Assembly (NCBI GenBank): GCA_038065095.1
Contig: JBBTRR010000001.1
Coordinates: 29,652-93,651 of the forward strand
From: Patescibacteria group bacterium
GTDB lineage: Bacteria; Patescibacteriota; Minisyncoccia; JACQLN01
Direction: 5' to 3'
Length of the DNA stretch: 64,000 bases
Notes under the pieces: generated by a model
Told to the model about the DNA's origin: nothing
Database searches by the model: none
What the model saw: only the letters and a program-made list of their open reading frames with translations
Made by a program: the position numbers and the translations under genes
In this document: piece after piece, positions 13,593 to 59,489 of the stretch
Layout: each line of letters opens with the position of its first letter
How positions within the stretch are numbered: the stretch's first letter is position 1

Positions 13593-15371
13593 ATGAATCA
13601 AGAAATTGCTAAAATTTTTAAAGAAATATCTATTCTACTTTCAATGCAAGGTGTGGCATTTAAACCGCAGGCGTTTGAGCGGGCGGCCACGAACATAGAA
13701 AACCTAGGCGAGGATTTAAAAGATATATATAAAAAAGGTGGTACTAAGGCTCTAGAACAAATTCAAGGTGTAGGTAAGAGCATGGCAGAAATGATAGAGG
13801 AGTATTTAAAAACAAAAAAAATTAAAGAACATTTAGCTTTAAAGAAAAAAATTCCGGTGGATATAGAGGGCTTAACTAGTGTGGAGGGCGTTGGCCCCAA
13901 GGGTGTATACAAACTTTATAAGAAGCTAGGCATTAGAACCTTAGGCGATTTAGAAAAATCGGCTAAGGCAGGCTTAATTAAAAATTTAGAAGGCTTTGGT
14001 GAAAAATCGGAGGAAAAAATTTTACGTGGTTTAGAGTTTGTTAAAAAGCACAGCGGTAGATATGTTTTAGGTTTTGTTTTACCCGAAATTAGGGAAATTG
14101 TTTTGCGTTTAGAAAAAAGTAAATATGCCGATAAAGTTTTGTTTTGTGGTTCGGCTCGAAGGATGCAGGAAACCATAGGTGACGCCGATATTTTAATAAC
14201 TTCTAAAAATGCAAAAGAAGTTATGGATCTTTTTATAAAAATGCCAGAAGTTGGAAGGGTGGTAGCAAAAGGCGAAACTAAAAGCGTTGTTAAGTTAAAT
14301 AATGGTTTAGAAGTAGACTTGCGTGTGGTAGCGCCCAAAAGTTTTGGGGCAGCGGCGCAATATTTTACTGGTGATAAAAATCATAATGTAGAATTGCGAA
14401 AGATTGCGATAGATAAAGGCTATAAGTTAAATGAGTATGGTTTGTATAAAATTAAAAAATCAAATCTCAAAAATCAAAATTACAATTCAAAAATAAAAAA
14501 TAAAGAAGAATATGTTGCTGGCGAATCAGAAGAGGGCATATATAAGGCGTTAGATATGGATTTTATTCCTCCAGAACTTAGAACCTTAAATGGCGAGATA
14601 GAAGCGGCTCAAAACCATAAACTTCCTAAGCTGGTTGATTACGGCGATTTAAAAGGCGATTTGCAGATTCAAACCAACTGGACGGATGGCGAAAACACAA
14701 TAGAAGAAATGGCTGAAGCCGCTATGAAAATAGGTTTGGAATATATTTTAATTACGGATCATACAAAATCCTTGGCTATGACAGGCGGGTCGGATGAGAA
14801 AAAGTTAGAAAAACAAATGGCAGAAATAGATAAAATAAACAAAAGATCCAAGTTCCAAGATACAGGTTTCAAGATTTTAAAAGGTGCTGAGGTAAATATT
14901 TTAAAAGATGGTTCGTTAGATATAGACGATAAAACTTTAGCTAAATTAGATGTGGTAGGTGTAGCGGTTCATTCTTTATTTAACCTGCCAAAAGCCGAAC
15001 AAACCAAAAGAATAATTAAGGCGATGGAAAACCCAAATGTAGATATTCTTTTTCATCCCACTGGCAGAATTATTAACAAACGACCAGCTTACGAAGTTGA
15101 TATGGAAGAAATTATAAAAGCCGCCAAAAGAACCGGCACGGTTTTAGAAATAGACGCTTTTGCCGATAGGTTAGATTTAAAAGATGAACACATAAGAATG
15201 GCGATAGAGGCAGGTATAAAATTATCCATAGATTCCGATGCGCATCATACGGATCATTTTAAATATTTAGAAATTGGTATTGCGCAGGCGAGAAGGGCTT
15301 GGGCGACAAGGGAAGATATAATAAACACACAACCCTTAGATAAAATGTTAGGATTTTTAAAAAATAATTAA
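13593..15371 (+). CDS. DNA polymerase X family (Pol beta-like domain + PHP domain)
   Basis: HhH motifs GVGKSMAEMIEEY and GVGPKG; the nucleotidyltransferase core; C-terminal PHP (ILITDHT, HS, DSDAHH). Confidence 0.85.
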   Translation: MNQEIAKIFKEISILLSMQGVAFKPQAFERAATNIENLGEDLKDIYKKGGTKALEQIQGVGKSMAEMIEEYLKTKKIKEHLALKKKIPVDIEGLTSVEGVGPKGVYKLYKKLGIRTLGDLEKSAKAGLIKNLEGFGEKSEEKILRGLEFVKKHSGRYVLGFVLPEIREIVLRLEKSKYADKVLFCGSARRMQETIGDADILITSKNAKEVMDLFIKMPEVGRVVAKGETKSVVKLNNGLEVDLRVVAPKSFGAAAQYFTGDKNHNVELRKIAIDKGYKLNEYGLYKIKKSNLKNQNYNSKIKNKEEYVAGESEEGIYKALDMDFIPPELRTLNGEIEAAQNHKLPKLVDYGDLKGDLQIQTNWTDGENTIEEMAEAAMKIGLEYILITDHTKSLAMTGGSDEKKLEKQMAEIDKINKRSKFQDTGFKILKGAEVNILKDGSLDIDDKTLAKLDVVGVAVHSLFNLPKAEQTKRIIKAMENPNVDILFHPTGRIINKRPAYEVDMEEIIKAAKRTGTVLEIDAFADRLDLKDEHIRMAIEAGIKLSIDSDAHHTDHFKYLEIGIAQARRAWATREDIINTQPLDKMLGFLKNN

Positions 15372-22752: not shown

Positions 22753-25700
22753 ATGAGACAAGTAAATCTACCTCAAGAAGAAGAAAAAGTTTTAAAACAT
22801 TGGCACGAAAACGAGATTTTCGAAAAAACTCTAGAAGCCACTAAAGATGGTAAGCCTTTTGTATTTTACGAGGGCCCGCCTACGGCCAATGGCAAACCAG
22901 GTATTCATCATATTGTGGCGAGGTCTTTTAAAGATATTATTTGCCGTTTTCAAACCATGAAAGGCCGGTACGTTTCGCGCCGCGCCGGTTGGGATACACA
23001 TGGCTTGCCGGTAGAAATTGAGGTAGAGAAAAAACTTGGTTTAAAAAATAAGCGCGATGTAGAAAAATACGGTATCGCCAAGTTTAATAAAGATTGCCAA
23101 ATATCGGTATGGCAATATAAAGATGAATGGGAAAAAATGACACGCCGAATGGGCTATTGGCTCGATTTAAAAAATCCATATATAACTTACGAACCTCAAT
23201 ACATAGAAAATGTTTGGAATATTTTAAAAAGAATTTACGATAAAAATCTTTTAGTTAAAGATTATAAAATCGTGCCGTTTTGTGTGCGTTGTGGTACGCC
23301 AATTTCTAGCCACGAAGTGGCGCAGGGTTACGAAACAGTTACAGATAGATCGGTAACCATAAAATTTAAAGTAAAAGGTTTAGAAAATACATATTTACTG
23401 GCGTGGACTACCACGCCGTGGACTTTACCAGGAAACGTTGCTTTGGCAGTTGGGCCAAAGGTTGTTTATGTAGAAGCCGAAGTTAACGGCGAAAAATATA
23501 TTTTGGCTCGCGATTTAGCCGAGAAAGTTTTTTCCTCGACTACGCTCGGAACAAGTGGCTCTGATTACAAAATAAATAAAGAATTAAAAGCGGGCGATCT
23601 TACCAAACTTTCTTACGAACCATTATTTGCAGTTAAAGAATTAGAAAGTGAAAATTCTTACAAAGTTTACGAAGCTGATTTTGTAACCACCGAAGATGGT
23701 ACGGGGATTGTGCATACCGCTGTAATGTATGGCGCCGACGATTTTGAACTTGGCACCAAATTAAATTTGCCAAAATTCCACACGGTTAACCGCGAAGGCG
23801 TTTTTGTAAAATCAGTCCCTGTTGTTGGTGGCCTTGCTATTGTTAGCGAAAATAAAAAAGACCCAATAACCGAAAAAACAATTTTGTTTTATTTAAAAAA
23901 ACAAAATTTTCTGTTTAGCGAAGCTAGCTACAAACACGAATATCCATTCTGTTGGCGTTGTAAATCGCCGTTACTATATTACGCCCAAGAAAGTTGGTTT
24001 ATAAAAATGTCGGCGTTACGGGGCGATTTAATTAAAAATAACGAAAAAGTTAATTGGGTGCCCGAACACATTAAAGAAGGTAGGTTTGGCGAATGGTTAC
24101 GCGAAGTTAAAGATTGGGCCATAAGCCGTGAAAGGTATTGGGGCACGCCACTGCCAATTTGGGAGTGCACCAAATGCGAACATAAAACCGTGATTGGTTC
24201 TTTGGAAGAATTAAATTCAAACAGATTTAGCGAAGGCACGGATTTTTTACTGGTTCGTCATGGTGAAGCTGAATCTAATGTGGGTCAATTTGTTAGCTGC
24301 TATCCAGAAAAAAAATTAAACCCACTTACCGAAAAAGGTAGAAAGCAAGTGGAAGAATCAGCTAAAAAAATAAAAAAAGAATTAGGTAAAAATAAAGTTG
24401 CAGCTATTTATGCTTCCGATGTTTTACGCGCTCGTGAGACCGCACAGATAATCGCGGATGAACTTAAAATAAAAGAAGTTGTCTTAGATGAAAGACTACG
24501 CGAAATAAACGTAGGCGATTTAAACGGCTTGCTTTCAAGTGAATACGTGGCCCATTTTAATTCGCTTAAAGATCGCTTTGTACGCCCAGCACCAGGCGGA
24601 GAATCGCTTGAGGATACAGTTAAAAGAATGAAGAATTTTGTGCATGATGTTTCTGAAAAATATGGAAACAAGAAGGTGATTGTGGTTAGTCACGGCGATC
24701 CCCTATTTTTCTTAAAAAATTCAGATAAAGTTTATGGCGAAGACGAACTTGAACTTCTATATCAAAAAGCTATAGATAAACCAGGAAAATATTTAGACCT
24801 GGCGGGGTTTACAGATTTTAAACTTAATAACTGGCCTTACGACGAAGAAGGGAATTTAAACCTTCATCGCCCTTATGCAGATAATGTGTTCCTCAAGTGT
24901 TCTATGTGTTCCTCAAAAATGGAACGTATAAAAGACTTAGCCGATGTTTGGTTTGATTCAGGTGCGATGCCATGGGCGTCATCGGAAAATCAAAAATCAA
25001 AAATCAAAAATCAAAATTTAGGGAAAGATAAGTTTCCAGCTGATTACATTTGTGAAGCGATAGATCAAACTCGTGGTTGGTTTTACACCTTAATGGCGGT
25101 TAGCACAGCTTTGGGCGAAGGCACGCCATATAAAAATGTAATTAGTTTAAACCACGTGTTAGATGAAAAAGGCGAGAAGATGTCGAAATCGAAAGGGAAT
25201 ATTGTAGACCCATGGATGGTGGGCGAGAAAGTTGGTTTCGACATGATGCGTTGGTATTTTTATACTGTAAACGCGCCGGGTGATAACAAACTTTTTAGTA
25301 TGCGCGATATAGAAAGCAAAAAGCGCAGGTTTGCCGATACTCTAATTAATTCATTCTTGTTTCTCGAAACATACTATGTTTCGAGTGGTGAGCGTAGTCG
25401 AACCATTACAGCTCGACCGGACATTCTAGATAAATGGATTTTAATGCGTTTAGAAAAATTAGAATTTGAAGTAAATAAATTTTTAGAAACTTACGATATA
25501 ACTTCCGCTTCGCGTGCTATAGAAGAATTTATAGATGAACTTTCTAATTGGTATATTCGCCGCAGTCGCCGCAAATTTCAAAAACAAAATATAGACGCCG
25601 AAAAATTATCGGCTCAAAATACTTTAACCGAAGTTTTAAAACGCACTGCTATTATTATGGCGCCATTTGCACCGTTTATATCGGAATGGCTATATATGAA

Positions 25701-26307
25701 TCTCAAAAACTTGAAACTTGGAACTTGTAACTTAGAATCAGTCCATCTCGAACACTGGCCGAAGTCATCCAAAATATCTAAATCGGAAATTACCAAAGCT
25801 ATGGAAAGAGCTCGTGAAATTGTGGCTCTAGGTTTAGCCGAGCGTGCTCAAGCGGGTTTACGCGTGCGCCAACCATTAAATGCTTTGTATGTTTCGCCAG
25901 CCGATTACAATTTAATTGGCGATGTTTTATACATTGTGGCGGAGGAACTAAATGTTAAAAAAGTTTTAAGCGACAGAAAAATAGAAAAAAATAGCGTTAG
26001 TTTGGATACTGTTCTTACAGCGGAACTCAAAGAAGAAGGTATGGTGCGTGAAATGATTCGCAACATTAACGAAATGAGAAAAGAAGCGAAGCTAACACCG
26101 GAAGATAAAATAATTTTGTATTACGAATTAAATCAAAACGCTAATTTTAAAGAATTATTAACGCGTTGGGAAAATATAATTAAACAAGAAACTCGTTCTA
26201 CCCAAATTCACTTCGGTATAACCGAAGCCGAAAGTTTTTTGGTCCACAAAGTTTGGAATTACGAAGGTTTTGAAATTGGAGTGGGGATTAAGACACACGA
26301 AGATTAA
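22753..26307 (+). CDS. ileS: isoleucyl-tRNA synthetase with inserted histidine-phosphatase (PGAM-family) domain
   Basis: PPTANGKPGIHHIVA (HIGH), CP1 editing region, WAISRERYWGTPLP, DQTRGWFYTL, KMSKSKGN. 1184 aa. Confidence 0.9.
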   Translation: MRQVNLPQEEEKVLKHWHENEIFEKTLEATKDGKPFVFYEGPPTANGKPGIHHIVARSFKDIICRFQTMKGRYVSRRAGWDTHGLPVEIEVEKKLGLKNKRDVEKYGIAKFNKDCQISVWQYKDEWEKMTRRMGYWLDLKNPYITYEPQYIENVWNILKRIYDKNLLVKDYKIVPFCVRCGTPISSHEVAQGYETVTDRSVTIKFKVKGLENTYLLAWTTTPWTLPGNVALAVGPKVVYVEAEVNGEKYILARDLAEKVFSSTTLGTSGSDYKINKELKAGDLTKLSYEPLFAVKELESENSYKVYEADFVTTEDGTGIVHTAVMYGADDFELGTKLNLPKFHTVNREGVFVKSVPVVGGLAIVSENKKDPITEKTILFYLKKQNFLFSEASYKHEYPFCWRCKSPLLYYAQESWFIKMSALRGDLIKNNEKVNWVPEHIKEGRFGEWLREVKDWAISRERYWGTPLPIWECTKCEHKTVIGSLEELNSNRFSEGTDFLLVRHGEAESNVGQFVSCYPEKKLNPLTEKGRKQVEESAKKIKKELGKNKVAAIYASDVLRARETAQIIADELKIKEVVLDERLREINVGDLNGLLSSEYVAHFNSLKDRFVRPAPGGESLEDTVKRMKNFVHDVSEKYGNKKVIVVSHGDPLFFLKNSDKVYGEDELELLYQKAIDKPGKYLDLAGFTDFKLNNWPYDEEGNLNLHRPYADNVFLKCSMCSSKMERIKDLADVWFDSGAMPWASSENQKSKIKNQNLGKDKFPADYICEAIDQTRGWFYTLMAVSTALGEGTPYKNVISLNHVLDEKGEKMSKSKGNIVDPWMVGEKVGFDMMRWYFYTVNAPGDNKLFSMRDIESKKRRFADTLINSFLFLETYYVSSGERSRTITARPDILDKWILMRLEKLEFEVNKFLETYDITSASRAIEEFIDELSNWYIRRSRRKFQKQNIDAEKLSAQNTLTEVLKRTAIIMAPFAPFISEWLYMNLKNLKLGTCNLESVHLEHWPKSSKISKSEITKAMERAREIVALGLAERAQAGLRVRQPLNALYVSPADYNLIGDVLYIVAEELNVKKVLSDRKIEKNSVSLDTVLTAELKEEGMVREMIRNINEMRKEAKLTPEDKIILYYELNQNANFKELLTRWENIIKQETRSTQIHFGITEAESFLVHKVWNYEGFEIGVGIKTHED
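24235..24730 (+). other. PGAM/histidine-phosphatase domain inserted within ileS
   Basis: LLVRHGEAESN (RHG), LTEKGRKQ, ASDVLRARETA, PGGESLEDTVKR, VVSHGDP. The domain sits between CTKCEH and KCSMCSS zinc-knuckle halves. Confidence 0.7.
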
Positions 26308-26765
26308 AAATAAAAAAACCTTAAAGTTCCTAAAATCCATTTGATAGCTCTTTTTAAGATATTTACATCCTCATCCATCATACCAATACTAGAATTACAT
26401 TGTCGGCAAATCCAGCCACGTATTTCCCCGTTTAGATGGTAGTGGTCTAAGACAACATCATTTTTAAACTGTCTGATTATTGTTCTATCACAGACAGGAC
26501 AGTGGAAAGATTCTCCGAGAGGTGGCATGGGATGGGTTTTTCCATACGCAATTCTCATCTTTATAGGAATTGGTTTTTTCCACTTGCGACAATTCCGACA
26601 TTCACCTCTCCTAGATATTTTTCCCGCAATACTTTTTTGGTTTTTTTCAAACTCAAAAATACTTTTTCTTTGCTGACATCGACGACAAATCTTGGTTTCA
26701 TTAAAACACAAATTACAGAACTCTTTGTGGGAGGCTTTATTACGATTACATTCAGTACAAATCAT
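26304..26765 (-). CDS. Endonuclease VII-family (HNH-like) nuclease with N-terminal Cys-rich Zn-finger repeats
   Basis: CPVCDRTIIRQFKNDVVLDHYHLNGEIRGWICRQCNSSIGMMDED matches the T4 EndoVII/Endonuclease_7 core. ATGA start/stop overlap with the upstream LexA-MTase gene. Confidence 0.6.
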   Translation of the reverse strand: MICTECNRNKASHKEFCNLCFNETKICRRCQQRKSIFEFEKNQKSIAGKISRRGECRNCRKWKKPIPIKMRIAYGKTHPMPPLGESFHCPVCDRTIIRQFKNDVVLDHYHLNGEIRGWICRQCNSSIGMMDEDVNILKRAIKWILGTLRFFYF

Positions 26766-28279
26766 ATATATTTAATTCTTTTACGAGCCACTTCACAGTA
26801 TTTATTAAATAACTCACTTCCTATATACTTTCTACCACTAAGAACAGCCATTTTGGCGGTGGTGCCACTACCCATAAATGGGTCGTATACAACATCACCT
26901 TCTTTACTCCAAGAGACTATATGGTCTTCTGCTAGTTTTTCAGGGAAGATAGCTGGGTGTTCGTATGCAAAATTATCGCTTGCCGAGTGTCCTTTTCCGA
27001 TATAATACTCCCAGACGTTTGTTCTCCTACCAAACTTTTCATAACCACTTCTAGCTCTCTTAGATAAAGTCCCATCATAAAGTCGTTTAGTACCACTATC
27101 ACCGGATCTTGCCTCTATATTTTCTCTATCTTTTATAAGGTTTATTGTTTTTGGTGTTCCTTTGCTAAATACAAACATGTATTCAAAGGTTTGCCAATAG
27201 GTTTTATTATTGCCAACCGCTCCGCGTGGTGGTTTTAAGTAAATCATTGTATCAAATAAATTAAAACCAATTTCTTTGAAATACAAGGCATGCTTAAGGG
27301 ATGTACCGCTTTCATTTCCTTTTTTTGTTTGGTCAGCAATAACCCACACAACGACCCCACCTTTTTTAGTAATGCGATATAACTCTTTAACTATCTGCTC
27401 AAATTCATTAAAGGTGTTACCATTATATTTTCGCATATCGTCATAAGGAGGAGAGGTTACTGTCATGTCAATAAAATTGTCTGGCATTCTAGACATTGTG
27501 TCTAAACAATTTTCATTGTAGATAGTATTCAGATTAACACCTTCTTTTTTTATTTCGAGCGAAGTGTTTTCCATTATTTCTGCCGTATCTCTATAAATTA
27601 CTTGGTTTTTAGGAAGTGCTTCGTATTTTACACCTCTTATTTTAAAAGGTGATGTATATGAAGAACTTTTAGTATAATTTTCGTTCTTTATAACATCAAT
27701 TAAAGTTCCTTGAATCGCAAAATCTTGATTTTTTTTAACTATTATTGGCTCCATATTTTTATTGGCGGGTTGTAATCGTATATGGTTTTTTTCTTTAAAA
27801 AAAGTTTTCAAAGTTGCTTCGCGGTTATCTATTAATGCGACTACCTTTTCTCCGTTTTTGGCTGTATTTTGTTCTTTAATTAAAACAATATCACCGCTAT
27901 TTATTTTTTCTTCAACCATACTGTTACCTCTTACCCTCAAGGCATAGATATTTCCAGAATTAGGCAATTTATTTTTCGGAACCATAATTGTTTCTTTTTC
28001 CTCTATGGCTTCAATTGGTTCACCAGCCGCGATTATGCCCAATAAGGGAATTTTTACAAAATTATCATATATAGGTATTTCTATATTTCTTTTTTGATGT
28101 TTTTCTTTGTTTATATATCCTTTGTTTGTAAGAGCTTCTAAGTGTTGGCTTATAGTGGCTGAAGAAGTGAGCTTAAAATGCTTCCCAATTTCCTTATGAG
28201 AAGGGGCGTAGCCTTTTTTATTACTATATTTAGTTACAAAATCAAGGATTTGTTTTTGTCTTGGAGTTAAGTTTCTCAT
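26762..28279 (-). CDS. LexA (wHTH + S24 peptidase) fused to beta-class DNA methyltransferase (SPPY ... FxGxG)
   Basis: N-terminus aligns with E. coli LexA along its length: LTPRQKQILDFV, GYAPSHKEIGKHF, cleavage site IAAGEP, Ser motif RGNSM, Lys motif ATLKTF, RLQPAN. C-terminus carries DMTVTSPPYDD and then VVYDPFMGSGTTAKM. Confidence 0.8.
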   Translation of the reverse strand: MRNLTPRQKQILDFVTKYSNKKGYAPSHKEIGKHFKLTSSATISQHLEALTNKGYINKEKHQKRNIEIPIYDNFVKIPLLGIIAAGEPIEAIEEKETIMVPKNKLPNSGNIYALRVRGNSMVEEKINSGDIVLIKEQNTAKNGEKVVALIDNREATLKTFFKEKNHIRLQPANKNMEPIIVKKNQDFAIQGTLIDVIKNENYTKSSSYTSPFKIRGVKYEALPKNQVIYRDTAEIMENTSLEIKKEGVNLNTIYNENCLDTMSRMPDNFIDMTVTSPPYDDMRKYNGNTFNEFEQIVKELYRITKKGGVVVWVIADQTKKGNESGTSLKHALYFKEIGFNLFDTMIYLKPPRGAVGNNKTYWQTFEYMFVFSKGTPKTINLIKDRENIEARSGDSGTKRLYDGTLSKRARSGYEKFGRRTNVWEYYIGKGHSASDNFAYEHPAIFPEKLAEDHIVSWSKEGDVVYDPFMGSGTTAKMAVLSGRKYIGSELFNKYCEVARKRIKYI

Positions 28280-28390
28280 TACTTAATTATACCGAAAATT
28301 AACCGAAAGTTATCCACAGATAAATCACAGCTCATTATAAAGTTTTTATTGCAGTAACATTGGCGAATTGATAGTATCATTATAAATATT

Positions 28391-46067: not shown

Positions 46068-47285
46068 ATGGATTCAAATATAATAAAACTTTTACAGCTC
46101 GAAAAGGATCGCCAGAAAGAAACTATAAATTTAATTCCTTCGGAAAATTTAGTTTCAAAAAATGTCTTAACTGTTTTAGGTTCGGTCTTAACCAATAAGT
46201 ATGCCGAAGGGAAGTCGCATCAGCGTTATTATTTTGGTAACGAAATTGTAGACAAAATAGAAGACGAAACTAAAGCTATGGTTTATAAAGTTTTTGGAAT
46301 CTCGGAAAGTGAATGGGGTGTAAATGTTCAATCGTACTCTGGCAGTATTGCTAATTTAGCAGCTTATCTTGGGGTTTTGGAATTAGGGGACAAAGTTTTG
46401 GCTATGTCGCTAGAGCATGGTGGGCATTTAACACACGGGCATAAAGTAAGTTTTACTGGGAAAATATTTAAGTTTGAGCACTATGGTGTGGGTAAAGATG
46501 GTTTATTAAATTACGAATCTATTTTAGAACAAGCTAAAAAATTTAATCCTAAACTAATTGTGGCTGGGGCAACGGCATATCCAAGAACAATAGATTTTAA
46601 AAAATTTAAAGAAATTGCAGATGCTGTTGGCGCAAAATTAATGATAGATCTATCTCATATTGCGGGTTTGGTTGCGGGTGATGTTCACCTGTCGCCATTT
46701 CCTTATGCAGATGTTGTTACAACTACAACGCATAAAACTTTGCGTGGTCCGCGAGGCGCTATAGTTATTTCTAAAAAAGAATTATCGGATAATATAGATA
46801 AAGCTGTTTTCCCTGGTTTACAAGGCGGGCCACAATTGCATACTATTGCCGCCATCGGAATTTCGCTTGAAGAAGCTACAAAACCCAATTTTAAAGAATA
46901 TGCAAACCAAATAGTTAAAAATGCTAAAGCTTTAGCCGAGGAATTAATCAAACTTGGTTTTTCTGTTGTATCCGGGGGCACGGATAATCACTTAATGCTG
47001 GTAGACGCTGCACCCCTTGGTTTAACAGGTTCGGAAGCTGGAAAGAAATTAGAAGAGGTTGGCATAATTGTTAACAAAAATATGATTCCATTTGATCCGC
47101 GTAAGCCATGGGATCCTTCTGGTATAAGAATTGGCACGCCATCGGTAACTACCAGAGGTATGAAAGAAGAAGAAATGAAAAAAATAGCAGAGCTAATCCA
47201 TATGACCTTACAAAATAAAGAAGATTTAGGTAAAATAAAGGCAGAGGTTAAAAGTTTAGCTAATAGATTTATTTTTACAGGGTGA
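46068..47285 (+). CDS. glyA: serine hydroxymethyltransferase
   Basis: TTTTHKTLRGPRGA PLP-lysine motif region. 405 aa. Confidence 0.9.
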   Translation: MDSNIIKLLQLEKDRQKETINLIPSENLVSKNVLTVLGSVLTNKYAEGKSHQRYYFGNEIVDKIEDETKAMVYKVFGISESEWGVNVQSYSGSIANLAAYLGVLELGDKVLAMSLEHGGHLTHGHKVSFTGKIFKFEHYGVGKDGLLNYESILEQAKKFNPKLIVAGATAYPRTIDFKKFKEIADAVGAKLMIDLSHIAGLVAGDVHLSPFPYADVVTTTTHKTLRGPRGAIVISKKELSDNIDKAVFPGLQGGPQLHTIAAIGISLEEATKPNFKEYANQIVKNAKALAEELIKLGFSVVSGGTDNHLMLVDAAPLGLTGSEAGKKLEEVGIIVNKNMIPFDPRKPWDPSGIRIGTPSVTTRGMKEEEMKKIAELIHMTLQNKEDLGKIKAEVKSLANRFIFTG

Positions 47286-47929
47286 TCAGAATATTGCAGT
47301 TTCGCTCGCCAAGGGGGAAAGTTTTTCAACCCCCTCATTATAAATATTTTGGTATCCCCCTTGAATTCGCTCAACAGCAATATTCTTTTCTAATGGATAA
47401 TATTTTTTTCGCATCAATCTACAATTTAGCTTTTAAGAATGTTTGGACAGATACACTGATAATACTTTTTGCGGCGTATTGGGAATTTGTAGTGGTAGCA
47501 GTTTTGCTTTTTTATTTATGGACGCCAAAGCTTAGAAAATCGGATTTAAGGACTCGAGCGCTTCATACTGGACTCGCTCTTTTTTCGGCTTTGTTTGCTA
47601 GATTTGGTGTAACATCTCTTATTCGTTTTTTATATCCACGTGAACGCCCGTTTGTTTTTGGTGGATTGGACGCGCTTATAAACCAAAACCCATTAGAAGC
47701 ATCTTTTCCTTCGGGGCATGCTACATTTTTTATGGCATTGGCAGTTTATTTTCTTTTGATTGGCCAACGTAAGCTGGGTATTTTTCTTTTTGTTTCTGCT
47801 ATTTTAATTGGTGTCGCCAGAGTGGCCGCAGGCGTTCATTGGCCGAGCGATGTTTTGGCGGGTTGGGCGATTGGCGCTGTAGTTAGTTATGTTATTTTTT
47901 GGTTTACCAAAAACAAATTTAATAAATAG
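47282..47929 (+). CDS. PAP2-family phosphatase (undecaprenyl-diphosphatase-like)
   Basis: RPF...PSGHA...GVHWPSDVLAG motifs. The actual start is possibly ATG ~47396 (MDNIFF). Confidence 0.6.
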   Translation: MIRILQFRSPRGKVFQPPHYKYFGIPLEFAQQQYSFLMDNIFFASIYNLAFKNVWTDTLIILFAAYWEFVVVAVLLFYLWTPKLRKSDLRTRALHTGLALFSALFARFGVTSLIRFLYPRERPFVFGGLDALINQNPLEASFPSGHATFFMALAVYFLLIGQRKLGIFLFVSAILIGVARVAAGVHWPSDVLAGWAIGAVVSYVIFWFTKNKFNK

Positions 47930-48083
47930 CATTTACATAACAGACGGTCACAAAAAAATGTTATAGCATAGATTTGTGACTGTTGATCTATGCTTGTTAG
48001 TTTGAAGCCAGTGTATTATTATACATTGGCTTTTTGGTTCTTTTAAAAAATAGTTCGATTAACTCACCATAAAGGAGGGAAAA

Positions 48084-48662
48084 ATGAATAATATAAATAA
48101 AAACTTGGCCAATATGATAACAGGTATTGGGCTTATCGCTGTAATACTTTTTATAACTTTTTTGTTTAAAGGATACTCTGGGCCAGTTATGATTGTGGCT
48201 ATTTCGATCGTTGCTCTTACGGATTTGATGGATGGAGCTATTGCAAGGGGTTTAAAAATAGTTTCTCAGTTGGGCAAGTCTCTTGATAGAGCTCGTGATA
48301 AACTTTTTGCCTGTGTTCTTTTTGGATTTGAACTAGGTAGATTACTAGAAAAGTCCGACATAGTTTCTAATGCCGCTTCGGCCTTTTTGGTAGCGATACT
48401 TTTATTTGAACTAGGCTTAATAGGTACTTGGATATTCGGCTTGAAAAAGAAGCTAGATGTAAGTGCACATGTTTGGGGTAAAAGAAAGATGTGGTTTTAC
48501 TTTTTTTCGGCTTATCTGTTCTTTGTAGATGTATACTTTGTTCCTTTTTTGGGTAACCAAATATTCGGTGTAGTATTTCTTTCGTGTTTAGCTATCTCGG
48601 CTTTATTGGCTTTCTTAAGTTTGTGGGGCTATATACAGAGATTTTTTCCTTCTAAAACATAA
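48084..48662 (+). CDS. hypothetical membrane protein
   Basis: AAAGGAGGGAAAA-ATG RBS. 5 TM segments. A terminator (AAAAATCCTCCTTTGGGAGGGTTTTTGTTTT) follows. Confidence 0.35.
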   Translation: MNNINKNLANMITGIGLIAVILFITFLFKGYSGPVMIVAISIVALTDLMDGAIARGLKIVSQLGKSLDRARDKLFACVLFGFELGRLLEKSDIVSNAASAFLVAILLFELGLIGTWIFGLKKKLDVSAHVWGKRKMWFYFFSAYLFFVDVYFVPFLGNQIFGVVFLSCLAISALLAFLSLWGYIQRFFPSKT

Positions 48663-48750
48663 AAAATCCTCCTTTGGGAGGGTTTTTGTTTTGTGGTCAA
48701 GAGCTTCTTGCTTGCATAATACCCCTAGGGGGTGTATACTTATAAACATT

Positions 48751-49014
48751 ATGAATCCAACAAAGAATAAAATAATTCATCGCTTAAAAATAATAGAGGG
48801 GCAAGTTAGGGGTTTACAAGAGATGGTTAAAAAGGATGTTTATTGTATAGATGTTATTACTCAAACATCTGCCGTTAAACAAGGTCTTTCCAATGCCGAA
48901 GATCTGCTTTTGGAAAACCATTTAGATAGCTGTGTATTAAAACAGGTTACTTCCGGCGAAACGAATAAAGCTAAAAAAGAAATTTTAAAAGTTTATAAGC
49001 TTAAAAGAAAATAA
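48751..49014 (+). CDS. csoR: CsoR/RcnR-family metal-sensing repressor
   Basis: RLKIIEGQVRGLQEMVKKDVYCIDVITQTSAVKQGL...HLDSCV. Confidence 0.7.
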   Translation: MNPTKNKIIHRLKIIEGQVRGLQEMVKKDVYCIDVITQTSAVKQGLSNAEDLLLENHLDSCVLKQVTSGETNKAKKEILKVYKLKRK

Positions 49015-49019
49015 AAATA

Positions 49020-51581
49020 ATGACAACCAAAACATTCAAAATTAAAGGAATGCATTGTGCTAGTTGTGTTGCAACAATTGAGCGTGTGCTTTTAAAGACA
49101 ATTGGTGTGCGTTCGGCTTCAGTTAATTTTGCTTCGGAATCGGCATTTGTTGAGTTTGATGAAAAAATCATTTCAGAGTCAAATCTCGCAAAAATTGTTG
49201 AATCAGTGGGTTATCACCTTGAAGTGAACACGAAAGAAAAAATCATATCTGTTGCAACCGACAAAAAAGGAAAGGTAATTATTGGCAAAAATATTGAAAC
49301 AATTTCAATGAAAGTCTTAGGTATGGATTCTCCTCATTGCGCAATGACGGTTGAGAGCGCACTTAAAAAGTTATCGGGCATTAAAAACACTGATATTGAT
49401 TTTTCAAATCAGCGCGCAAAAATTATTTTTGACTCGTCTCTGTTAAATATTGGCGATATTTTTAAAGTTATTACTGATGCTGGCTATAAGCCGATTGAAG
49501 AAGAGGGTGAGGCGGAAGAGATCTTGGATAAAGAAAAGTTTGAACGGGAGAAGCAAATAAAAACCATGAAACTCAAGCTTGTGATTGGCGGTATTCTTTC
49601 ATTTTTTATATTTTTAGGCAGTTTTCCGCAGTGGTTCTCTTTTGTACCACAAGTTTTAAATAGTAATTGGGTTCTTTTAATTTTAACTACCCCAGTGCAA
49701 TTTTGGGTTGGTTATCAGTTTTACAGCGGACTCAAGCTTCTCATTAAATATCGCACTGCCGATATGAACACTTTGATTGCTATTGGGACATTAGCTGCAT
49801 ATTTCTATAGTGTGGCAGTTACAATTTTTCCGGTTTTTTTCGCAAGAGAAGGGCTAATGCCGGCAACCTACTTTGATACTTCGGCAATAATTATCGTTTT
49901 AATTCTTTTAGGAAAGTATTTTGAGATATTGATGAAAGGAAGGGCTTCGGAGGCTATTAAAAAACTTATCGGTCTACAACCTAAAACCGCAAAAGTTATA
50001 AAAGGAGGAAAAGAAATCGAAATATTGATTTCCGATGTTATGCTGGGCGATTTAATAGTTGTTCGACCAGGAGAAAGAATTCCGGTTGATGGAAAGATAA
50101 CTGAAGGAGACTCGGAAATTGATGAGTCAATGATTACCGGAGAATCAATGCCTGTTCATAAAAAAGTTGATAGTGCGGTTATAGGTAGCACCATAAATAA
50201 ATTCGGAACATTCACTTTTCGGGCGACTAAAATTGGCAAAGATACTGTGCTTTCGCAAATAATTAAAATGGTAGAGGAAGCCCAAGGTTCTAAGGCTCCG
50301 ATTCAGCGGCTGGCCGATCTTGTTTCCTCTTATTTCGTTCCGGCGGTGTTCATTATTTCTTTTTTAACTTTTATTGTTTGGTTTTTCTTTGGACCTACCC
50401 CTGCTTTTACTTTTGCTCTTATAAATTTCGTGGCAGTTTTGATAATTGCTTGTCCTTGCGCTCTTGGTCTTGCTACCCCTATGGCTATTATGGTTTCTTC
50501 TGGTAGCGCGGCAAGTAAAGGTATTTTAATAAAAGATGCTGCTTCGCTTGAAATTGCTAATAAAATAAACACTGTGATTTTAGATAAAACAGGCACGCTT
50601 ACACAAGGAAAACCGCAACTAACTGATATTGTTGCGTTCAATAATAACCACCAAGTAGATATTCTTAATCTCGCAGCTTCGTTGGAACAAAGGTCGGAAC
50701 ATCCTTTGGCACAGGCTATATTGCAGTATGCTGCAAGTCTTGATCAAAAATCCTCGCACCCTCTTGATAGGGCGATTATTGATGAGGTGGCAAAAGAAAA
50801 TATTGGACTCTATCAATTGGAAAATTTTAAAGCAATCTCCGGAAAGGGTTTACAAGGATTTTTACAAATTCAATCTCAAAGGGTTGAGGCATATTTAGGA
50901 AACCGAGCCTTAATGACAGACATTGGTCTTGATGTTTCTTTATACGAAGATGTTATTAGCAAGCTTGAAAATGAAGGTAAAACAGTAATGATTGTTGCAG
51001 TTGATAAAAAAATTAAAGGCGCGCTTGCTGTGGCCGATGTATTAAAAAAAGAAGCAATTGAAGCAGTACAAACTCTCAAAAAGAACAATATAGATGTTTG
51101 GATGCTTACTGGGGATAATGACCGCACTGCCCGCGCCATTGCGGCGCAAGTAGGCATAGACAATATAATGAGTGAGATATTACCAGACAAGAAATCGGAA
51201 AAGGTGCGCGAACTTCAGAATCAAGGAAAAATTGTGGCAATGATTGGTGACGGCATAAACGACGCTCCGGCGCTTACGCAAGCTAATATTGGTATTGCTA
51301 TGGGCGAAGGCACGGATATTGCCATGGAGTCGGCTAATATCACGCTGATGCGGGGAGATTTGATGCTTATCCCAGAAGTAATAAATATTTCTAAACGCAC
51401 AATGAGAATAATAAAACAAAATCTTTTCTGGGCGTTTTTCTACAATATAGCTTTTATTCCTGTTGCTGCGGGTGTTCTTTATCCGTTTTTTGGAATTCTG
51501 CTTAATCCAATTTTTGCCGCGACAGCAATGGCCTTTAGCAGTATTAGCGTTGTTTTAAATTCATTAAGATTAAGAGTGTAG
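49020..51581 (+). CDS. copA: copper-translocating P1B-type ATPase with two N-terminal HMA domains
   Basis: GMHCASCV, CPC (ACPCALGLATP), DKTGTLT, GDGINDAPAL. Confidence 0.9.
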   Translation: MTTKTFKIKGMHCASCVATIERVLLKTIGVRSASVNFASESAFVEFDEKIISESNLAKIVESVGYHLEVNTKEKIISVATDKKGKVIIGKNIETISMKVLGMDSPHCAMTVESALKKLSGIKNTDIDFSNQRAKIIFDSSLLNIGDIFKVITDAGYKPIEEEGEAEEILDKEKFEREKQIKTMKLKLVIGGILSFFIFLGSFPQWFSFVPQVLNSNWVLLILTTPVQFWVGYQFYSGLKLLIKYRTADMNTLIAIGTLAAYFYSVAVTIFPVFFAREGLMPATYFDTSAIIIVLILLGKYFEILMKGRASEAIKKLIGLQPKTAKVIKGGKEIEILISDVMLGDLIVVRPGERIPVDGKITEGDSEIDESMITGESMPVHKKVDSAVIGSTINKFGTFTFRATKIGKDTVLSQIIKMVEEAQGSKAPIQRLADLVSSYFVPAVFIISFLTFIVWFFFGPTPAFTFALINFVAVLIIACPCALGLATPMAIMVSSGSAASKGILIKDAASLEIANKINTVILDKTGTLTQGKPQLTDIVAFNNNHQVDILNLAASLEQRSEHPLAQAILQYAASLDQKSSHPLDRAIIDEVAKENIGLYQLENFKAISGKGLQGFLQIQSQRVEAYLGNRALMTDIGLDVSLYEDVISKLENEGKTVMIVAVDKKIKGALAVADVLKKEAIEAVQTLKKNNIDVWMLTGDNDRTARAIAAQVGIDNIMSEILPDKKSEKVRELQNQGKIVAMIGDGINDAPALTQANIGIAMGEGTDIAMESANITLMRGDLMLIPEVINISKRTMRIIKQNLFWAFFYNIAFIPVAAGVLYPFFGILLNPIFAATAMAFSSISVVLNSLRLRV

Positions 51582-51611
51582 ACAAAATTATAAAAATAAT
51601 TTAAAAATTTT

Positions 51612-51815
51612 ATGACAAATTCAAACTTAGGTAAATTAGATAGGATATTGCGATTTGCTTTAGCTTTCTGGTGGCTTGGGCCGTTGGCGCCACATTTTGA
51701 CGCAAATTGGGCAAATATAATTATTACTTCTATTGGATGGATTGCTCTTATTGAAAGTTTCTTAGGCTGGTGTTGGCTTCATACTGCTTTCGGCATTAAT
51801 AACAAGGACAAATAG
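51612..51815 (+). CDS. DUF2892 (YgaP-like) small membrane protein
   Basis: RFALAFWWLGPLAPH...WIALIESFLGWCWLHTAFGI. Confidence 0.5.
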   Translation: MTNSNLGKLDRILRFALAFWWLGPLAPHFDANWANIIITSIGWIALIESFLGWCWLHTAFGINNKDK

Positions 51816-51828
51816 CAGTATCATTAAA

Positions 51829-52248: not shown

Positions 52249-52360
52249 CTTTAATTTGTCGTAAAATTTTTAGCTATGTCTTTTTTAAATCCCTATTACG
52301 GGATTTTTTAATTCACATAAAACTCCACAGCTTCTACGGAGAGAAACTTTAGAAAAAAAT

Positions 52361-52879: not shown

Positions 52880-52884
52880 ACTGT

Positions 52885-53664: not shown

Positions 53665-53671
53665 AACTAAT

Positions 53672-54127: not shown

Positions 54128-54155
54128 GAAAAATTATAATAATTAAAATAAAAAT

Positions 54156-56207: not shown

Positions 56208-56212
56208 AAAAA

Positions 56213-56608: not shown

Positions 56609-56743
56609 GTGTTTTATTTAAACAAAAAAAAGGGAGAATTACTCATTCTTCCTATTTTCATATTGGGGATAACTATTGTTTGTATACCTTCTATTTATTT
56701 TCTATAATTATATTATAGTCTCTACAAAAATATCGTCAATACT

Positions 56744-58606
56744 ATGATTACTAAAAATCAAAAAGAGGTGTTGAATTTTGTTAAAAGTTATCAAACCAAA
56801 CATGATTTCGCTCCTTCTCTGGAGGAGATTAAGAAAAAATTTAAACTTGCTTCTGTTTCTACCTCTCATTACTACATTAGAAAGCTTCAAGAGGCGGGGC
56901 AACTCCAAAAAGAATTTAATCAACCGCGCGCTGTTTCAACTACTAATAAAAAACAAACAATAGAAATACCAATCGTTGGCGCAATTGCCGCTGGGCAACC
57001 CATTAGGGCAATTGAAGTACAGAATGAAACAATTACTATCACTAAAGACGAAATAAGCAAACAAGGTAAACATTATGCCTTACGTGTTCAGGGTAATAGT
57101 ATGATAGAAGAAGGAATTTTTGACGGTGACATTGTGGTTATCCGTAAACAAGAAGTTGCCGAGAACGGGCAAACAGTGGTTGCAATTATTGATGAGGACG
57201 AAGCAACTCTAAAAAAGTTTTATCGTGAAAATAATAGGATTCGGCTTCAGCCAGCTAATCCAAGATTATTTCCAATTTATCGCGATGAGGTAGAAATTCG
57301 GGGCGTTGTTGTAAAAATTATTCGCAACCTTGAATTGCAGTTAGACAAAGAAAAATCAAAAGATAAATATGTGCGCCGAATAGATTCTTCTTGGGATTAT
57401 CGCGGAGAAAATACTAAAACCTATACACATGGTATTCACATCTATCCCGCAATGTTTATTCCGCAAGTGGCGCGAAGATTATTGGAGACATACAGTCAAG
57501 AGTACGATACAATTTGCGATATTTTTTGCGGTTCTGGCACAGCTTTGGTTGAAAGTAAATTGTTAAATAGGAGTGCCTATGGTATTGATCTAAACCCCTT
57601 GGCCATTTTCCTTGCCAAGGCGAAAACTACACCCATCAATCCTCAAAAATTAACAAGAACATATCTTTCTTTATTTGATAGAATTGGAAAAGTTACAGAT
57701 AGTGAGATTAAAAAACTCGATTTCAAAAATATTGGTTTTTGGTTTAAAGAAAAAGTTATTACTAAACTTTCAAAACTTAAAAAAGCTATCCAAGAAATTA
57801 AGGACGAAATAATTCGCGATTTTTTTATGGTCGCTTTTAGTGAAACAGTGCGCTATGCCTCAAACACAAAGACAGGCGAGTTTAAATTGGTAAGAATTAA
57901 GAGTGAAAAATTAGATAAACATGATCCCGATGTATTTGGAATTTTTCGAAAAAGGGCCGAGTCAAATATTGCAAAAATGGGTGAATTTTATAAAGATGCA
58001 AAAAAAGATGCTTGGACAAAAATAATTTACGGTGACTCGTCTAAAGATAATGGTATAAAACTAGCCTCTGTAGATTGCATAATTACCTCTCCGCCTTATG
58101 GAGATAGTCGAACAACGGTAGCTTACGGCCAGTTTTCGCGTCTTTCAGCCCAATGGGCCGATATTTTTGACAATCCGAATGATGCTTCTAGCATAGATAA
58201 CGAACTACTGGGCGGTAGAGCCTCAAAAACACTATCACATTCTTTGTCTTCGGATTATCTTAACGATTCATTAGACAATATTGCTAAAAAAGACGAAACG
58301 CGTGCCAAAGATGTTTTAAGTTTTTTTATTGGATTGAATGAGTGTTTAAAGCAAGCTCATAAAATATTAAAACCAAAAAAATATTTCTGTATTGTTATTG
58401 GTAATAGGTTAGTTAAACAAGTTCGTATCCCAACCGATTTTATAATCGCTGAGCTAGGAGAAAAAATCGGTTTTACTTGTGAGGATATTTTTGTTCGTAA
58501 TATTCCAGGCAAAAGAATGCCCATCAAAAACTCGCCTACAAACATTGTTGGAATACTTGAAGAAACGATGAACAAAGAAAGTATTGTTGTTTTAAGAAAA
58601 AACTAA
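56744..58606 (+). CDS. LexA (wHTH + S24 peptidase) fused to alpha-class DNA methyltransferase (FxGxG ... SPPY; N4C/N6A type)
   Basis: QKEVLNFV, DFAPSLEEIKKKF, cleavage site IAAGQP, RVQGNSM, ATLKKF, RLQPAN. Then DIFCGSGTALVE (motif I) and IITSPPYGDSRT (motif IV). Confidence 0.8.
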   Translation: MITKNQKEVLNFVKSYQTKHDFAPSLEEIKKKFKLASVSTSHYYIRKLQEAGQLQKEFNQPRAVSTTNKKQTIEIPIVGAIAAGQPIRAIEVQNETITITKDEISKQGKHYALRVQGNSMIEEGIFDGDIVVIRKQEVAENGQTVVAIIDEDEATLKKFYRENNRIRLQPANPRLFPIYRDEVEIRGVVVKIIRNLELQLDKEKSKDKYVRRIDSSWDYRGENTKTYTHGIHIYPAMFIPQVARRLLETYSQEYDTICDIFCGSGTALVESKLLNRSAYGIDLNPLAIFLAKAKTTPINPQKLTRTYLSLFDRIGKVTDSEIKKLDFKNIGFWFKEKVITKLSKLKKAIQEIKDEIIRDFFMVAFSETVRYASNTKTGEFKLVRIKSEKLDKHDPDVFGIFRKRAESNIAKMGEFYKDAKKDAWTKIIYGDSSKDNGIKLASVDCIITSPPYGDSRTTVAYGQFSRLSAQWADIFDNPNDASSIDNELLGGRASKTLSHSLSSDYLNDSLDNIAKKDETRAKDVLSFFIGLNECLKQAHKILKPKKYFCIVIGNRLVKQVRIPTDFIIAELGEKIGFTCEDIFVRNIPGKRMPIKNSPTNIVGILEETMNKESIVVLRKN

Positions 58607-59304
58607 AGGATTTTCTTATGAATCTTAAACAAAAGCGGTAAAAATTTTTCAGTCAGACGAAACGCAGAACCATGGTCGTGTGGTTGTCCTGCTTTTATTC
58701 CACTATGATAGACACCAAGACGAATATCGTATTTTGAATGGGCAAGAAATTTAGTCGGATCAATTTCTTTAAGGATATATGCGTCTTTGTAGTGAAAATA
58801 CTCGTGTCCGCTTTTATTTTTTGTTTCGGCTCGAACTAATATCAAGCCATTTCCTATTTTTTCTATCGCTTTCTGTTTCAAAAATGCCAGACTGTAATAT
58901 CCTAGAAGTTTTCCTTTTTTAAGAATAAGTAATTTTCCTTGCCCCTCATCAATAGTAGCTTGAAAACCCATACCATTTATTTTACCATCACTAATTGTTT
59001 GATGAAGAATTTTAATTTTAGGAAATTCTGAATCGGGATAACCAAAACGCTTTCTAATTTCAGAATTTGTGATACCTTCGGGGCTTTTAGTGAATAATGT
59101 CATCATGGAAATAGTATTGATTCTTTGAGACTTTAACTCCATTACACCGAAATCAGGTAGTGCAATATTATTTTCTGTAATTCCGAGATAATCCTCAAGA
59201 GTTTTTCCGATTCCAGTATTATGTTTTCGGTTTGATTTAATCCACCCCTTTTCTGAGAGTTCTTTTAAACCTTTCTTGATTTGAGTAAGTGTTCGTTTTT
59301 GCAT
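58603..59304 (-). CDS. putative Type II restriction endonuclease (MvaI/BcnI-like family, tentative)
   Basis: NTGIGKTLEDYLGI..N....PDFGVMELKS N-terminal pattern. 234 aa. Convergent 4-nt overlap with the MTase gene. The ORF-track N-terminal extension (to 59424) translates the tRNA and is rejected. Confidence 0.5.
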   Translation of the reverse strand: MQKRTLTQIKKGLKELSEKGWIKSNRKHNTGIGKTLEDYLGITENNIALPDFGVMELKSQRINTISMMTLFTKSPEGITNSEIRKRFGYPDSEFPKIKILHQTISDGKINGMGFQATIDEGQGKLLILKKGKLLGYYSLAFLKQKAIEKIGNGLILVRAETKNKSGHEYFHYKDAYILKEIDPTKFLAHSKYDIRLGVYHSGIKAGQPHDHGSAFRLTEKFLPLLFKIHKKIL

Positions 59305-59309
59305 CTTAT

Positions 59310-59394
59310 TGGTGGGCGAGGAGGGACTTGAACCCTCAAGCCTTTCGGCACACGATTTTGAGTCGTGCATGTTTGCCAATTTCATCACTCGCCC
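59310..59394 (-). tRNA. tRNA-Leu (anticodon CAA), long variable arm, encoded CCA
   Basis: Reverse complement reads GGGCGAGTGATGAAATTGGCAAACATGCACGACTCAAAATCGTGTGCCGAAAGGCTTGAGGGTTCAAGTCCCTCCTCGCCCACCA, with acceptor GGGCGAG/CTCGCCC and T-arm GAGGG-TTCAAGT-CCCTC. Confidence 0.75.
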
Positions 59395-59489
59395 AATATT
59401 TAGGTATTTTCTAGTAAAAAGCATTCATTGTCAATGCGGATTCCTTAAGGTAAAATGAATAGTATCTAATTAAGTAACTAAGTAATTTT

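Follow-up and report, generated by a model that had tools for sequence, protein, structure and literature searches.

Predicted LexA autorepressor modules fused to the methyltransferases of restriction-modification systems in Patescibacteria

Introduction

Why should the DNA methyltransferase of a restriction-modification (R-M) system begin with what appears to be an entire SOS repressor? The question is raised by a 64,000-nt stretch of the genome of a Patescibacteria group bacterium, an ultra-small groundwater organism (GenBank assembly GCA_038065095.1, contig JBBTRR010000001.1, positions 29,652 to 93,651 of the forward strand; this whole stretch is referred to as the window), which contains two methyltransferase (methylase) genes that start with a LexA module, termed system 1 and system 2. 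A first, sequence-only reading had described the system 1 protein as a LexA-methylase fusion coupled to a nuclease gene, had pointed to direct repeats upstream as a possible operator and had proposed that RecA-stimulated self-cleavage ties the system to the SOS response. Here we follow up these proposals computationally and, on balance and with reasonable though limited confidence, read system 1 as a type II R-M methylase with a built-in LexA autorepressor that is probably cleaved in response to RecA filaments on single-stranded DNA (ssDNA), placing the R-M genes under SOS and DnaA control.

R-M systems have to balance methylase against nuclease, and the controls in use include C (controller) proteins, antisense RNAs and methylases with a helix-turn-helix (HTH) domain that repress their own genes. 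Patescibacteria have tiny genomes with few regulators and, to our knowledge, mostly lack CRISPR and hence use R-M systems for defence. Self-cleavage triggered by RecA filaments serves as a switch in S24 repressors of the λ CI type, and DNA damage modulates restriction in the type I systems of Escherichia coli. λ CI, however, is a phage immunity repressor and the type I systems rely on ClpXP-based control of HsdR, and neither involves a methylase fusion.

Results

The system 1 methylase begins with a complete LexA module

The system 1 methylase gene encodes a single protein of 505 residues (Table 1), for which the domains LexA_DNA_bind, Peptidase_S24 and N6_N4_Mtase had been expected. Pfam returned exactly this trio, with the winged-helix DNA-binding domain at residues 1-64 (PF01726; E-value 2.9e-20), the S24 domain at residues 78-193 (PF00717; 1.2e-30) and the catalytic methylase domain at residues 270-499 (PF01555; 2.2e-37). 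The claim that the N-terminal ~200 residues correspond to LexA along their whole length is further borne out by the NCBIfam equivalog lexA (TIGR00498), which matches residues 1-199 with 186.3 bits, above the curated equivalog cutoff of 110.95 bits, and by the solved LexA structures of Thermotoga maritima (PDB 3k2z; 3e-33) and E. coli (1jhh; 7e-25), both of which align end to end from residue 1. In the alignment A85-G86, S120 and K158 of the system 1 protein correspond to A84-G85, S119 and K156 of E. coli LexA, so that the catalytic dyad Ser120/Lys158 is placed as predicted. The Ala-Gly cleavage site is likewise present, although the scissile bond, which had been drawn after the Gly, lies between A85 and G86 (IIAA/GEP). 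Ala-Gly, Ser and Lys are invariant in 30 close family members as well as in 48 divergent fusion representatives that share less than 50% identity with one another. The LexA module is complete and, judged by these residues, looks cleavage-competent.

In the C-terminal part TSPPY (motif IV) lies ahead of DPFMGSGTT (motif I), which is the motif order of beta-class methylases and agrees with the class assigned at the outset. The closest methylases in the PDB are N4-cytosine enzymes (8s9m/8s9n; 5e-15), with the N6-adenine methylases CcrM, MboIIA and RsrI behind them; since its nearest solved relatives are of the N4-cytosine type, the system 1 enzyme is likely, but not proven, to be an N4-cytosine methylase. 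In the AlphaFold2 model the predicted local distance difference test score (pLDDT) of residues 1-200 is 65-88 per 10-residue block and mostly above 70, and it falls below 50 in a disordered linker of ~43 residues (204-246), giving a picture in which LexA and methylase would be independently folded modules on a tether.

A fusion of this kind might be an artefact of assembly or gene calling that joined separate lexA and methylase genes. This explanation has a negligible probability and is refuted by the finding that the identical system 1 protein is encoded on 8 contigs from separate Hainich groundwater assemblies and the system 2 protein on 21 separately assembled contigs, one of them 384 kb long; moreover, the fusion is one continuous open reading frame (ORF) in hundreds of homologs. 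Positions 46744-64000, the final 17.3 kb of the window with system 2, are 100% identical to the 17.3-kb part fetched from the 384-kb contig, and most of the region from 16.8 to 35.9 kb, with system 1, is 97.6-99.4% identical to a sister strain (H41 contig, locus L081). Housekeeping genes surround the systems, including those for isoleucyl-tRNA synthetase, SmpB, initiation factor IF3, the ribosomal proteins L35/L20, RecO, a ProRS/HisRS-type aminoacyl-tRNA synthetase, and methionyl- and leucyl-tRNA synthetase. Both systems are real and chromosomal, and a chimeric assembly is excluded.

System 1 is a methylase-nuclease pair

The TGA stop codon of the methylase gene shares the sequence ATGA with the start codon of the next gene, and the proposal that this gene belongs to the Endonuclease VII family holds, as its 153-residue product matches Endonuclease_7 (PF02945; 9.5e-13). 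Residues 23-144 of the nuclease also match Hpy99I (PDB 3fc3; 3.7e-16); the His-Me motif aligns (DHYH..CRQCN in the system 1 nuclease versus DHNH..CDSCN in Hpy99I) and the zinc-binding CxxC pairs are kept. The nuclease is thus a homolog of Hpy99I (3fc3/3gox) over ~120 residues, with the Cys-rich zinc sites and the beta-beta-alpha-Me motif, but lacks the first ~70 residues of that enzyme.

That methylase and nuclease form a unit is supported by a scan of GTDB with one genome per species, in which an Hpy99I-like gene adjoins the methylase gene in ~70 of 80 loci. These loci span Patescibacteria, Poribacteria, Nitrosopumilus, Bacteroidota and Proteobacteria. The full-length LexA fusion occurs in ~23 of the 80 loci, nearly all of them labelled Patescibacteria or candidate phyla radiation (CPR), and the remaining ~57, among them loci of Poribacteria, Nitrosopumilus (archaea), Bacteroidota, Alpha- and Gammaproteobacteria and Spirochaetia, have the methylase part alone, at 60-76% identity. 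From this distribution we read the methylase-nuclease pair as a mobile type II R-M module and LexA, carried by the Patescibacteria copies only, as an add-on of that group. We regard the architecture of system 1 and its identity as an R-M system as nearly certain.

The Hpy99I-like gene is mostly in tandem with the methylase gene in non-fused loci and mostly convergent in fused loci; system 1 of the window and the loci L001, L002, L004 and L017 are fused and nevertheless have a tandem nuclease gene. When upstream regions were compared, the promoter elements described below were absent from the non-fused methylase copies, and no ORF for a C protein lies between or beside the system 1 genes. In two non-fused Patescibacteria loci (L024, L027) a small ORF ends directly upstream of the methylase gene, and its C-terminus resembles an excisionase/MerR-type HTH (...IGKEFRI...); it may encode an alternative controller.

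Site counts do not support CGWCG, which we take to be the Hpy99I site, as the target of system 1, since the window shows no depletion of it (31 observed versus 38 expected). The most under-represented palindrome of 4-6 nt is TCGA (84 observed versus 186 expected), and GCNGC, GGCC and CCWGG are likewise low. Such palindrome statistics suggest further R-M specificities in this genome.

A promoter cassette with a putative LexA operator precedes the fusion genes

A comparison of 24 promoter regions, 22 from homologs and two from the window systems, yielded three common elements: the 9-mer TGTGGATAA, a direct repeat with a period of 11 bp, and TATAAT close to the ATG. The repeat follows the pattern TTTCnnn-N4-(T)TTCnnn, its second unit lying over TATAAT. 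The TTTCGGT repeats that had been noticed overlapping a TATAAT box near the system 1 start codon conform to this pattern, with six bases between box and ATG, and the system 1 operator has no other exact match in the window. Direct-repeat LexA boxes with the same 11-bp period (GTTC-N7-GTTC) are known from Alphaproteobacteria. In 78 of 102 homologous promoters TATAAT is separated from the ATG by 6-9 nt, a spacing that implies a leaderless mRNA, so that transcripts of the cassette are probably leaderless. The λ cI mRNA transcribed from PRM is leaderless.

Across the family a change at the variable positions of one repeat unit is matched in the other (CGGT/CGGT, CGGG/CGGG, CTAT/CTAT, CTAG/CTAG, CAC/CAC). 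The variable bases also follow the recognition helix of the adjacent LexA: among 97 distinct proteins, all 63 with the helix xTAH[FY][HY] had TTTC[TG]A operators and all 22 with x[IV]H[QE]H had TTTCGG operators, that is, 85 of 85 pairings with none off the diagonal. The earlier suggestion that the repeats could be an operator is strongly supported by this conservation and co-variation, and the direct repeat is very probably the LexA operator. We consider autorepression through the repeat likely. System 1 combines the helix ATISQH with GGT and system 2 combines STSHYY with TAT; belonging to different operator classes, the two systems should not cross-regulate.

A metagenome collection was scanned with the exact composite pattern of 9-mer, repeat and ATAAT, giving at least 120 stretches. 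Among the matches listed, a downstream ORF was readable in 109, and in 106 of these it starts with a LexA module; the C-terminal parts of the 75 complete ORFs form seven unrelated clusters. The largest is of the beta N6_N4 type and contains system 1, and five clusters were confirmed by Pfam matches of representatives as permuted N6_N4, D12, C5, Eco57I+TaqI_C and N6_Mtase/Eco57I-type methylases. When the operator was searched for under strict criteria in 1.08 Mb of Patescibacteria loci, ~137 of the 150 sites obtained were at LexA promoters.

These scans bear on the possibility that the fusion is the general SOS repressor of a genome-wide repair regulon and the methylase a passenger that gains SOS-coupled expression. 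Such a role would be in line with the LexA equivalog score, with the lack of a stand-alone LexA in the window and with the origin of the nearest stand-alone LexAs, which, among those with a named source, are from Saganbacteria and Acidobacteria. Yet one genome holds two paralogs with different operator classes, operators are found only at the fusions' own promoters in the window and almost only there in the 1.08 Mb, and the composite promoter, standing ahead of a LexA gene in nearly every readable case, serves seven unrelated methylase types as well as a DpnI gene pair (see below), which looks like a local controller. We therefore consider a general repressor quite unlikely. Operators ahead of other genes were looked for and rejected, there being no exact site elsewhere in the window, and the 13 additional sites in the 1.08 Mb are about what chance gives (3-11 in shuffled sequence).

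In the promoters of L018 and L135 two inverted operator sets flank the promoter (e.g. CTTGACAGTTTCTATTTACTTTCGATACAAT...ATAGAAATTAAATCGAAAATTGTCAAG), which suggests divergent or doubled operators in some family members.

The cassette contains a DnaA box

The 9-mer TGTGGATAA is the reverse complement of TTATCCACA, which we take to be the canonical DnaA box consensus. It is exact in 15 of the 24 promoters and has at most one mismatch in ~20 of them, always on the coding strand and usually followed by a C. The window contains a single exact copy, the one in the system 1 promoter. In two other loci tandem copies of this 9-mer lie between dnaA and dnaN and also ahead of dnaA (L015: 3510-3560, 5166; L095: 1780, 3482, 9612, 9756), where dnaA and dnaN were recognised by reading sequence motifs rather than with a profile. 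Going by these positions, the 9-mer of the cassette is the DnaA box of these organisms, and we infer that DnaA binds it. The box lies upstream of the -35 position in promoters of the TA class, over it in system 1 and downstream of the -10 box in L003 and L008; given this variable position it may act by activation, by repression or in another way.

Two other interpretations of the element were rejected. A general -35 or promoter element is contradicted by a single exact copy of TGTGGATAAC in the 64 kb and a one-mismatch count at chance level, and a palindromic LexA site with the box as one of its halves would require a conserved upstream arm, which the homologs lack.

The LexA module is shared by many methylase classes

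With the LexA module alone as query against 1.84 billion cluster representatives, nearly all of the ~55 closest relatives were proteins of 260-890 residues with LexA at residues 2-199, and ordinary LexAs of ~200 residues became the majority only below ~49% identity. Pfam found LexA_DNA_bind and S24 in 48 of 48 long representatives, whose C-terminal parts matched N6_N4_Mtase (31), Eco57I (7), D12/Dam (5), N6_Mtase (5), MmeI_Mtase (4), C5 DNA_methylase (3) and TaqI_C (2). A public search for the exact system 1 architecture, as had been advised, gave more than 120 clusters at 90% identity, and the fusion is extremely common in Patescibacteria; in the databases these clusters are labelled 'transcriptional repressor LexA' or 'modification methylase'. 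The architecture is thus common and automatically annotated, the part of the anticipated objection that stood, but the other part, a known role, was not found: full-text searches of the literature found no description of a LexA-methylase fusion, a result that does not cover Sanchez-Osuna et al. 2017 (Environ Microbiol 19:3465) on the SOS network of Patescibacteria.

A phage origin was considered and rejected: 50,697 deposited phage genomes contain no full-length fusion and match only the methylase domain, at ~50% identity. The composite promoter gave one, chance-like match in 2.9 million viral contigs.

Two loci depart from the usual arrangement. In L139 a stand-alone LexA of 211 residues, one of two such LexAs behind the same cassette among the matches listed, belongs to the same clade and is followed after 5 nt by a methyl-dependent endonuclease of the DpnI family (PF06044, 1.5e-77, and DpnI_C). 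In L143 the LexA DNA-binding domain is fused directly to an N6_N4 methylase and lacks S24, and its promoter has the box and a TTTCGGG repeat. From sequence comparison LexA plus promoter is a portable cassette found on all methylase classes and also ahead of DpnI. A large predicted ATPase gene just upstream of the L139 pair has, on a reading of its sequence, an OLD/Gabija-like look.

The LexA part might serve only for DNA binding and dimerisation in an ordinary autorepression as in the SsoII and EcoRII systems, the S24 site being inherited and unconnected to RecA signalling. Autorepressing methylases indeed need no more than a DNA-binding domain, and L143 retains just this domain together with the promoter. 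Against it, Ala-Gly, Ser and Lys are invariant in the 48 representatives although these are joined to unrelated methylases, which would be unexpected for an unused site, and we regard this explanation as unlikely.

Alternatively, cleavage upon activation by RecA filaments, for instance in the course of phage infection, could act as a suicide switch: if degradation or mislocalisation of the severed methylase let methylation lapse, the cell would be killed by the nuclease in the manner of abortive infection or post-segregational killing. The N-terminal cleavage fragment would end in ..IAA, which we presume to resemble a ClpX tag. Moreover, the nuclease would be co-induced in system 1, and R-M systems are known to act like toxin-antitoxin pairs (PMC3874152). 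However, going by the AlphaFold2 model the cut would not damage the S24-methylase body, which keeps its flexible linker, where a stand-alone LexA accompanies DpnI there is no methylase that could be lost, and this analysis gave no sign of degradation, so that a suicide switch appears improbable.

A small ORF in convergent orientation abuts the 3' end of most other fusions. Among the ORFs beside other fusion types Pfam recognised only MvaI_BcnI and DpnI; eight others had no match, and a restriction function is assumed for them from their position only.

System 2 uses a different methylase and operator class

The second LexA-methylase that had been reported for the window is present as well. Its LexA part shares 45% identity with the LexA of system 1, and it is joined to a circularly permuted methyltransferase (Table 1). 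At 24 copies against 59 expected, the window is depleted of CCWGG, which we take to be the MvaI site, a hint that fits the specificity of system 2. Upstream of the convergent nuclease gene there is a TTGACA hexamer resembling a sigma-70 -35 element, and no LexA operator was seen in this upstream region. The parA-parB genes directly adjoin system 2 (56744-61451), and in L015 (224-5066) and L095 (509-6928) LexA-methylase genes lie a few kb from dnaN-dnaA; these positions hint at a preference of LexA-methylase genes for the origin-proximal region.

Table 1. Positions of the features discussed; coordinates are those of the window or of the locus named in the second column
Feature	Sequence	Position	Strand	Basis or remark
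System 1 methylase gene, 505 aa	Window	26762..28279	-	ORF; Pfam, TIGR00498 and PDB matches
System 1 LexA winged-helix DNA-binding domain, aa 1-64	Window	28088..28279	-	Pfam; recognition helix ..SATISQHLEAL.., x[IV]x[QE]H class
System 1 Peptidase S24 domain (autoprotease/dimerisation), aa 78-193	Window	27701..28048	-	Pfam; cleavage site and Ser/Lys dyad
System 1 N6_N4_Mtase catalytic domain, aa 270-499	Window	26783..27472	-	Pfam; PDB methylases
System 1 restriction endonuclease, 153 aa, Cys-rich beta-beta-alpha-Me (Endonuclease VII/Hpy99I-like)	Window	26304..26765	-	Pfam; PDB
System 1 -10 box TATAAT	Window	28286..28291	-	Six bases to the ATG at 28279
System 1 putative LexA operator TTTCGGT-TAAT-TTTCGGT	Window	28291..28308	-	Second unit overlaps the -10 box
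System 1 DnaA box TGTGGATAA (reverse complement TTATCCACA)	Window	28310..28318	-	Abuts the operator; occupies the -35 position
System 2 methylase gene, 620 aa	Window	56744..58606	+	Pfam: LexA_DNA_bind, S24, circularly permuted N6_N4 methyltransferase (motif I first)
System 2 endonuclease, MvaI/BcnI family	Window	58603..59424	-	Pfam PF15515, 1.5e-44; convergent, overlaps the methylase 3' end
System 2 cassette	Window	56664..56708	+	DnaA-box variant TGGGGATAA at 56664-56672; operator CTTCTAT-TTAT-TTTCTAT at 56688-56705; TATAAT at 56703-56708
Stand-alone LexA (211 aa) with DpnI-family endonuclease	L139	7826-9276		Pfam DpnI and DpnI_C; same clade and cassette
LexA DNA-binding domain fused to N6_N4 methylase	L143	62-1141		No S24; box and TTTCGGG repeat promoter
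Isoleucyl-tRNA synthetase, 1184 aa	Window	22753-26307	+	Precomputed Pfam
PolX-type DNA polymerase	Window	13593-15371	+	Pol beta thumb, HHH, PHP
RNase H-like and WYL domain protein	Window	3656-4474	+	
Diversity-generating-retroelement-like pair	Window	62826-63143, onward to 64000	-	Downstream of parB

Other features of the window

The gene for isoleucyl-tRNA synthetase overlaps the system 1 nuclease gene by 4 nt at its 3' end, and its product carries an inserted histidine-phosphatase domain (His_Phos_1) between two tRNA-synt_1 segments, with a visible RHGE motif. Beyond ~35.9 kb synteny with the sister strain is lost; in that part L081 encodes a PemK toxin and a reverse transcriptase and has a further, unannotated gene. 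The pair downstream of parB resembles a diversity-generating retroelement and consists of a bAvd accessory protein and a reverse transcriptase, of which a fragment 83% identical occurs at a different location in the sister strain (L081, 1-380). The genes for the PolX-type DNA polymerase and for the RNase H-like protein with a WYL domain have no LexA operator upstream.

Discussion

Taken together, the data are compatible with the following scheme. The fusion protein would dimerise via its S24 domain, and the two winged-helix domains of the dimer would bind the direct repeat over the -10 box of the fusion's own promoter, so that the methylase represses its own synthesis and, in system 1, also that of the coupled nuclease. 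RecA-ssDNA filaments, arising from DNA damage, stalled forks, or incoming ssDNA or phage DNA, would stimulate Ser120/Lys158 to cut between Ala85 and Gly86, separating the DNA-binding domain from the S24-methylase dimer. Repression would be lost and the R-M genes induced, and the released methylase part would stay intact on its flexible linker. The DnaA box in the same cassette would provide a second, replication-linked input. System 2 would follow the same scheme but has its own operator class and recognition helix. The layout of the genes would determine the outcome: in system 1 methylase and nuclease would both rise through translational coupling, whereas in system 2 and most family members, where the nuclease gene is convergent, the cassette would control the methylase only. 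As to its purpose, the circuit may supply extra methylase when repair or recombination generates unmodified sites (restriction alleviation), or it may boost defence upon the arrival of foreign ssDNA or phage DNA, an option favoured by the DpnI case.

A link between R-M and SOS driven by RecA filaments fits the invariant cleavage machinery, and we lean, if only slightly, towards RecA-dependent cleavage. The more specific proposal of a feedback loop that reacts to self-restriction damage found no direct support in this analysis. Several points weigh against the scheme as a whole. DNA binding, cleavage, induction, DnaA binding, leaderless transcription and physiological purpose are all things that we infer. 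There is no recA in the window or in any fetched locus, and that this genome carries one is a presumption based on what is generally known about the group. The S24 domain appears dispensable in L143, which keeps the DNA-binding domain and the promoter. The co-induction of the nuclease in system 1 fits poorly with a simple purpose of protecting the genome. The correlation between operator and helix partly reflects shared ancestry, as there are two main clades. Finally, a wider regulon is possible, the operator scans having covered the 64-kb window and the 1.08 Mb of related loci.

The closest precedents are methylases with regulatory N-termini. In M.SsoII, M.Ecl18kI, M.EcoRII, M.MspI and M.ScrFI an N-terminal HTH binds an operator over the enzyme's own promoter and represses it (PMC3874152). 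The fusions in the window share with these enzymes an N-terminal DNA-binding domain on the methylase and a putative operator over the -10 box, but instead of a simple Xre-type HTH they carry a whole LexA, that is, winged helix and S24 with an intact cleavage site, and therefore a repressor that could potentially be destroyed by a signal. Moreover, the operator of the SsoII/EcoRII type is an inverted repeat and the putative one of the LexA-methylases a direct repeat, and in contrast to the former the LexA cassette includes a DnaA box and a probably leaderless start and is joined to all methylase classes. The fusions resemble the SOS repressor LexA in their full-length homology, the Ala-Gly site with Ser and Lys, the equivalog score and an operator that likely lies over the promoter. 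Unlike SOS LexA with its ~200 residues, however, they comprise 505-890 residues covalently including a methylase, their operator is apparently found only at their own gene, and several paralogs of different specificity occur in one genome. As with C proteins, a dedicated transcription factor would set timing and level of the R-M system from an operator inside it, yet C proteins are separate small Xre-type HTH proteins whose main action is to activate the nuclease gene and which lack a protease domain.

The domain architecture itself abounds in databases, though only under automatic names, and the sequence-only reading had missed this commonness as well as the portable cassette, the DnaA box, the probably leaderless mRNA and the two operator classes. 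Subject to Sanchez-Osuna et al. 2017, what is new here is the cleavable LexA module and its spread over all methylase classes, together with operators of diversified specificity and an input through the DnaA box. More tentatively, DnaA box, operator, leaderless start and cleavable LexA could make up a dedicated portable cassette for the control of defence, attached to methylases of all classes and to methyl-dependent nucleases, with diversified operator-helix pairs giving each of several R-M systems in a cell a private circuit that senses RecA filaments and DnaA and creating a second, defence-specific SOS network parallel to the repair regulon; we regard this as possible but doubtful.

If the proposed scheme is true, a repressor domain on the methylase that can be cut in the course of the SOS response would be a new control logic for R-M systems. 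Restriction and modification would then be tied to DNA damage, to the uptake of ssDNA and, via the DnaA box, to replication. The LexA recognition helices and their matching operators may, in addition, offer orthogonal, cleavable repressors for synthetic biology.

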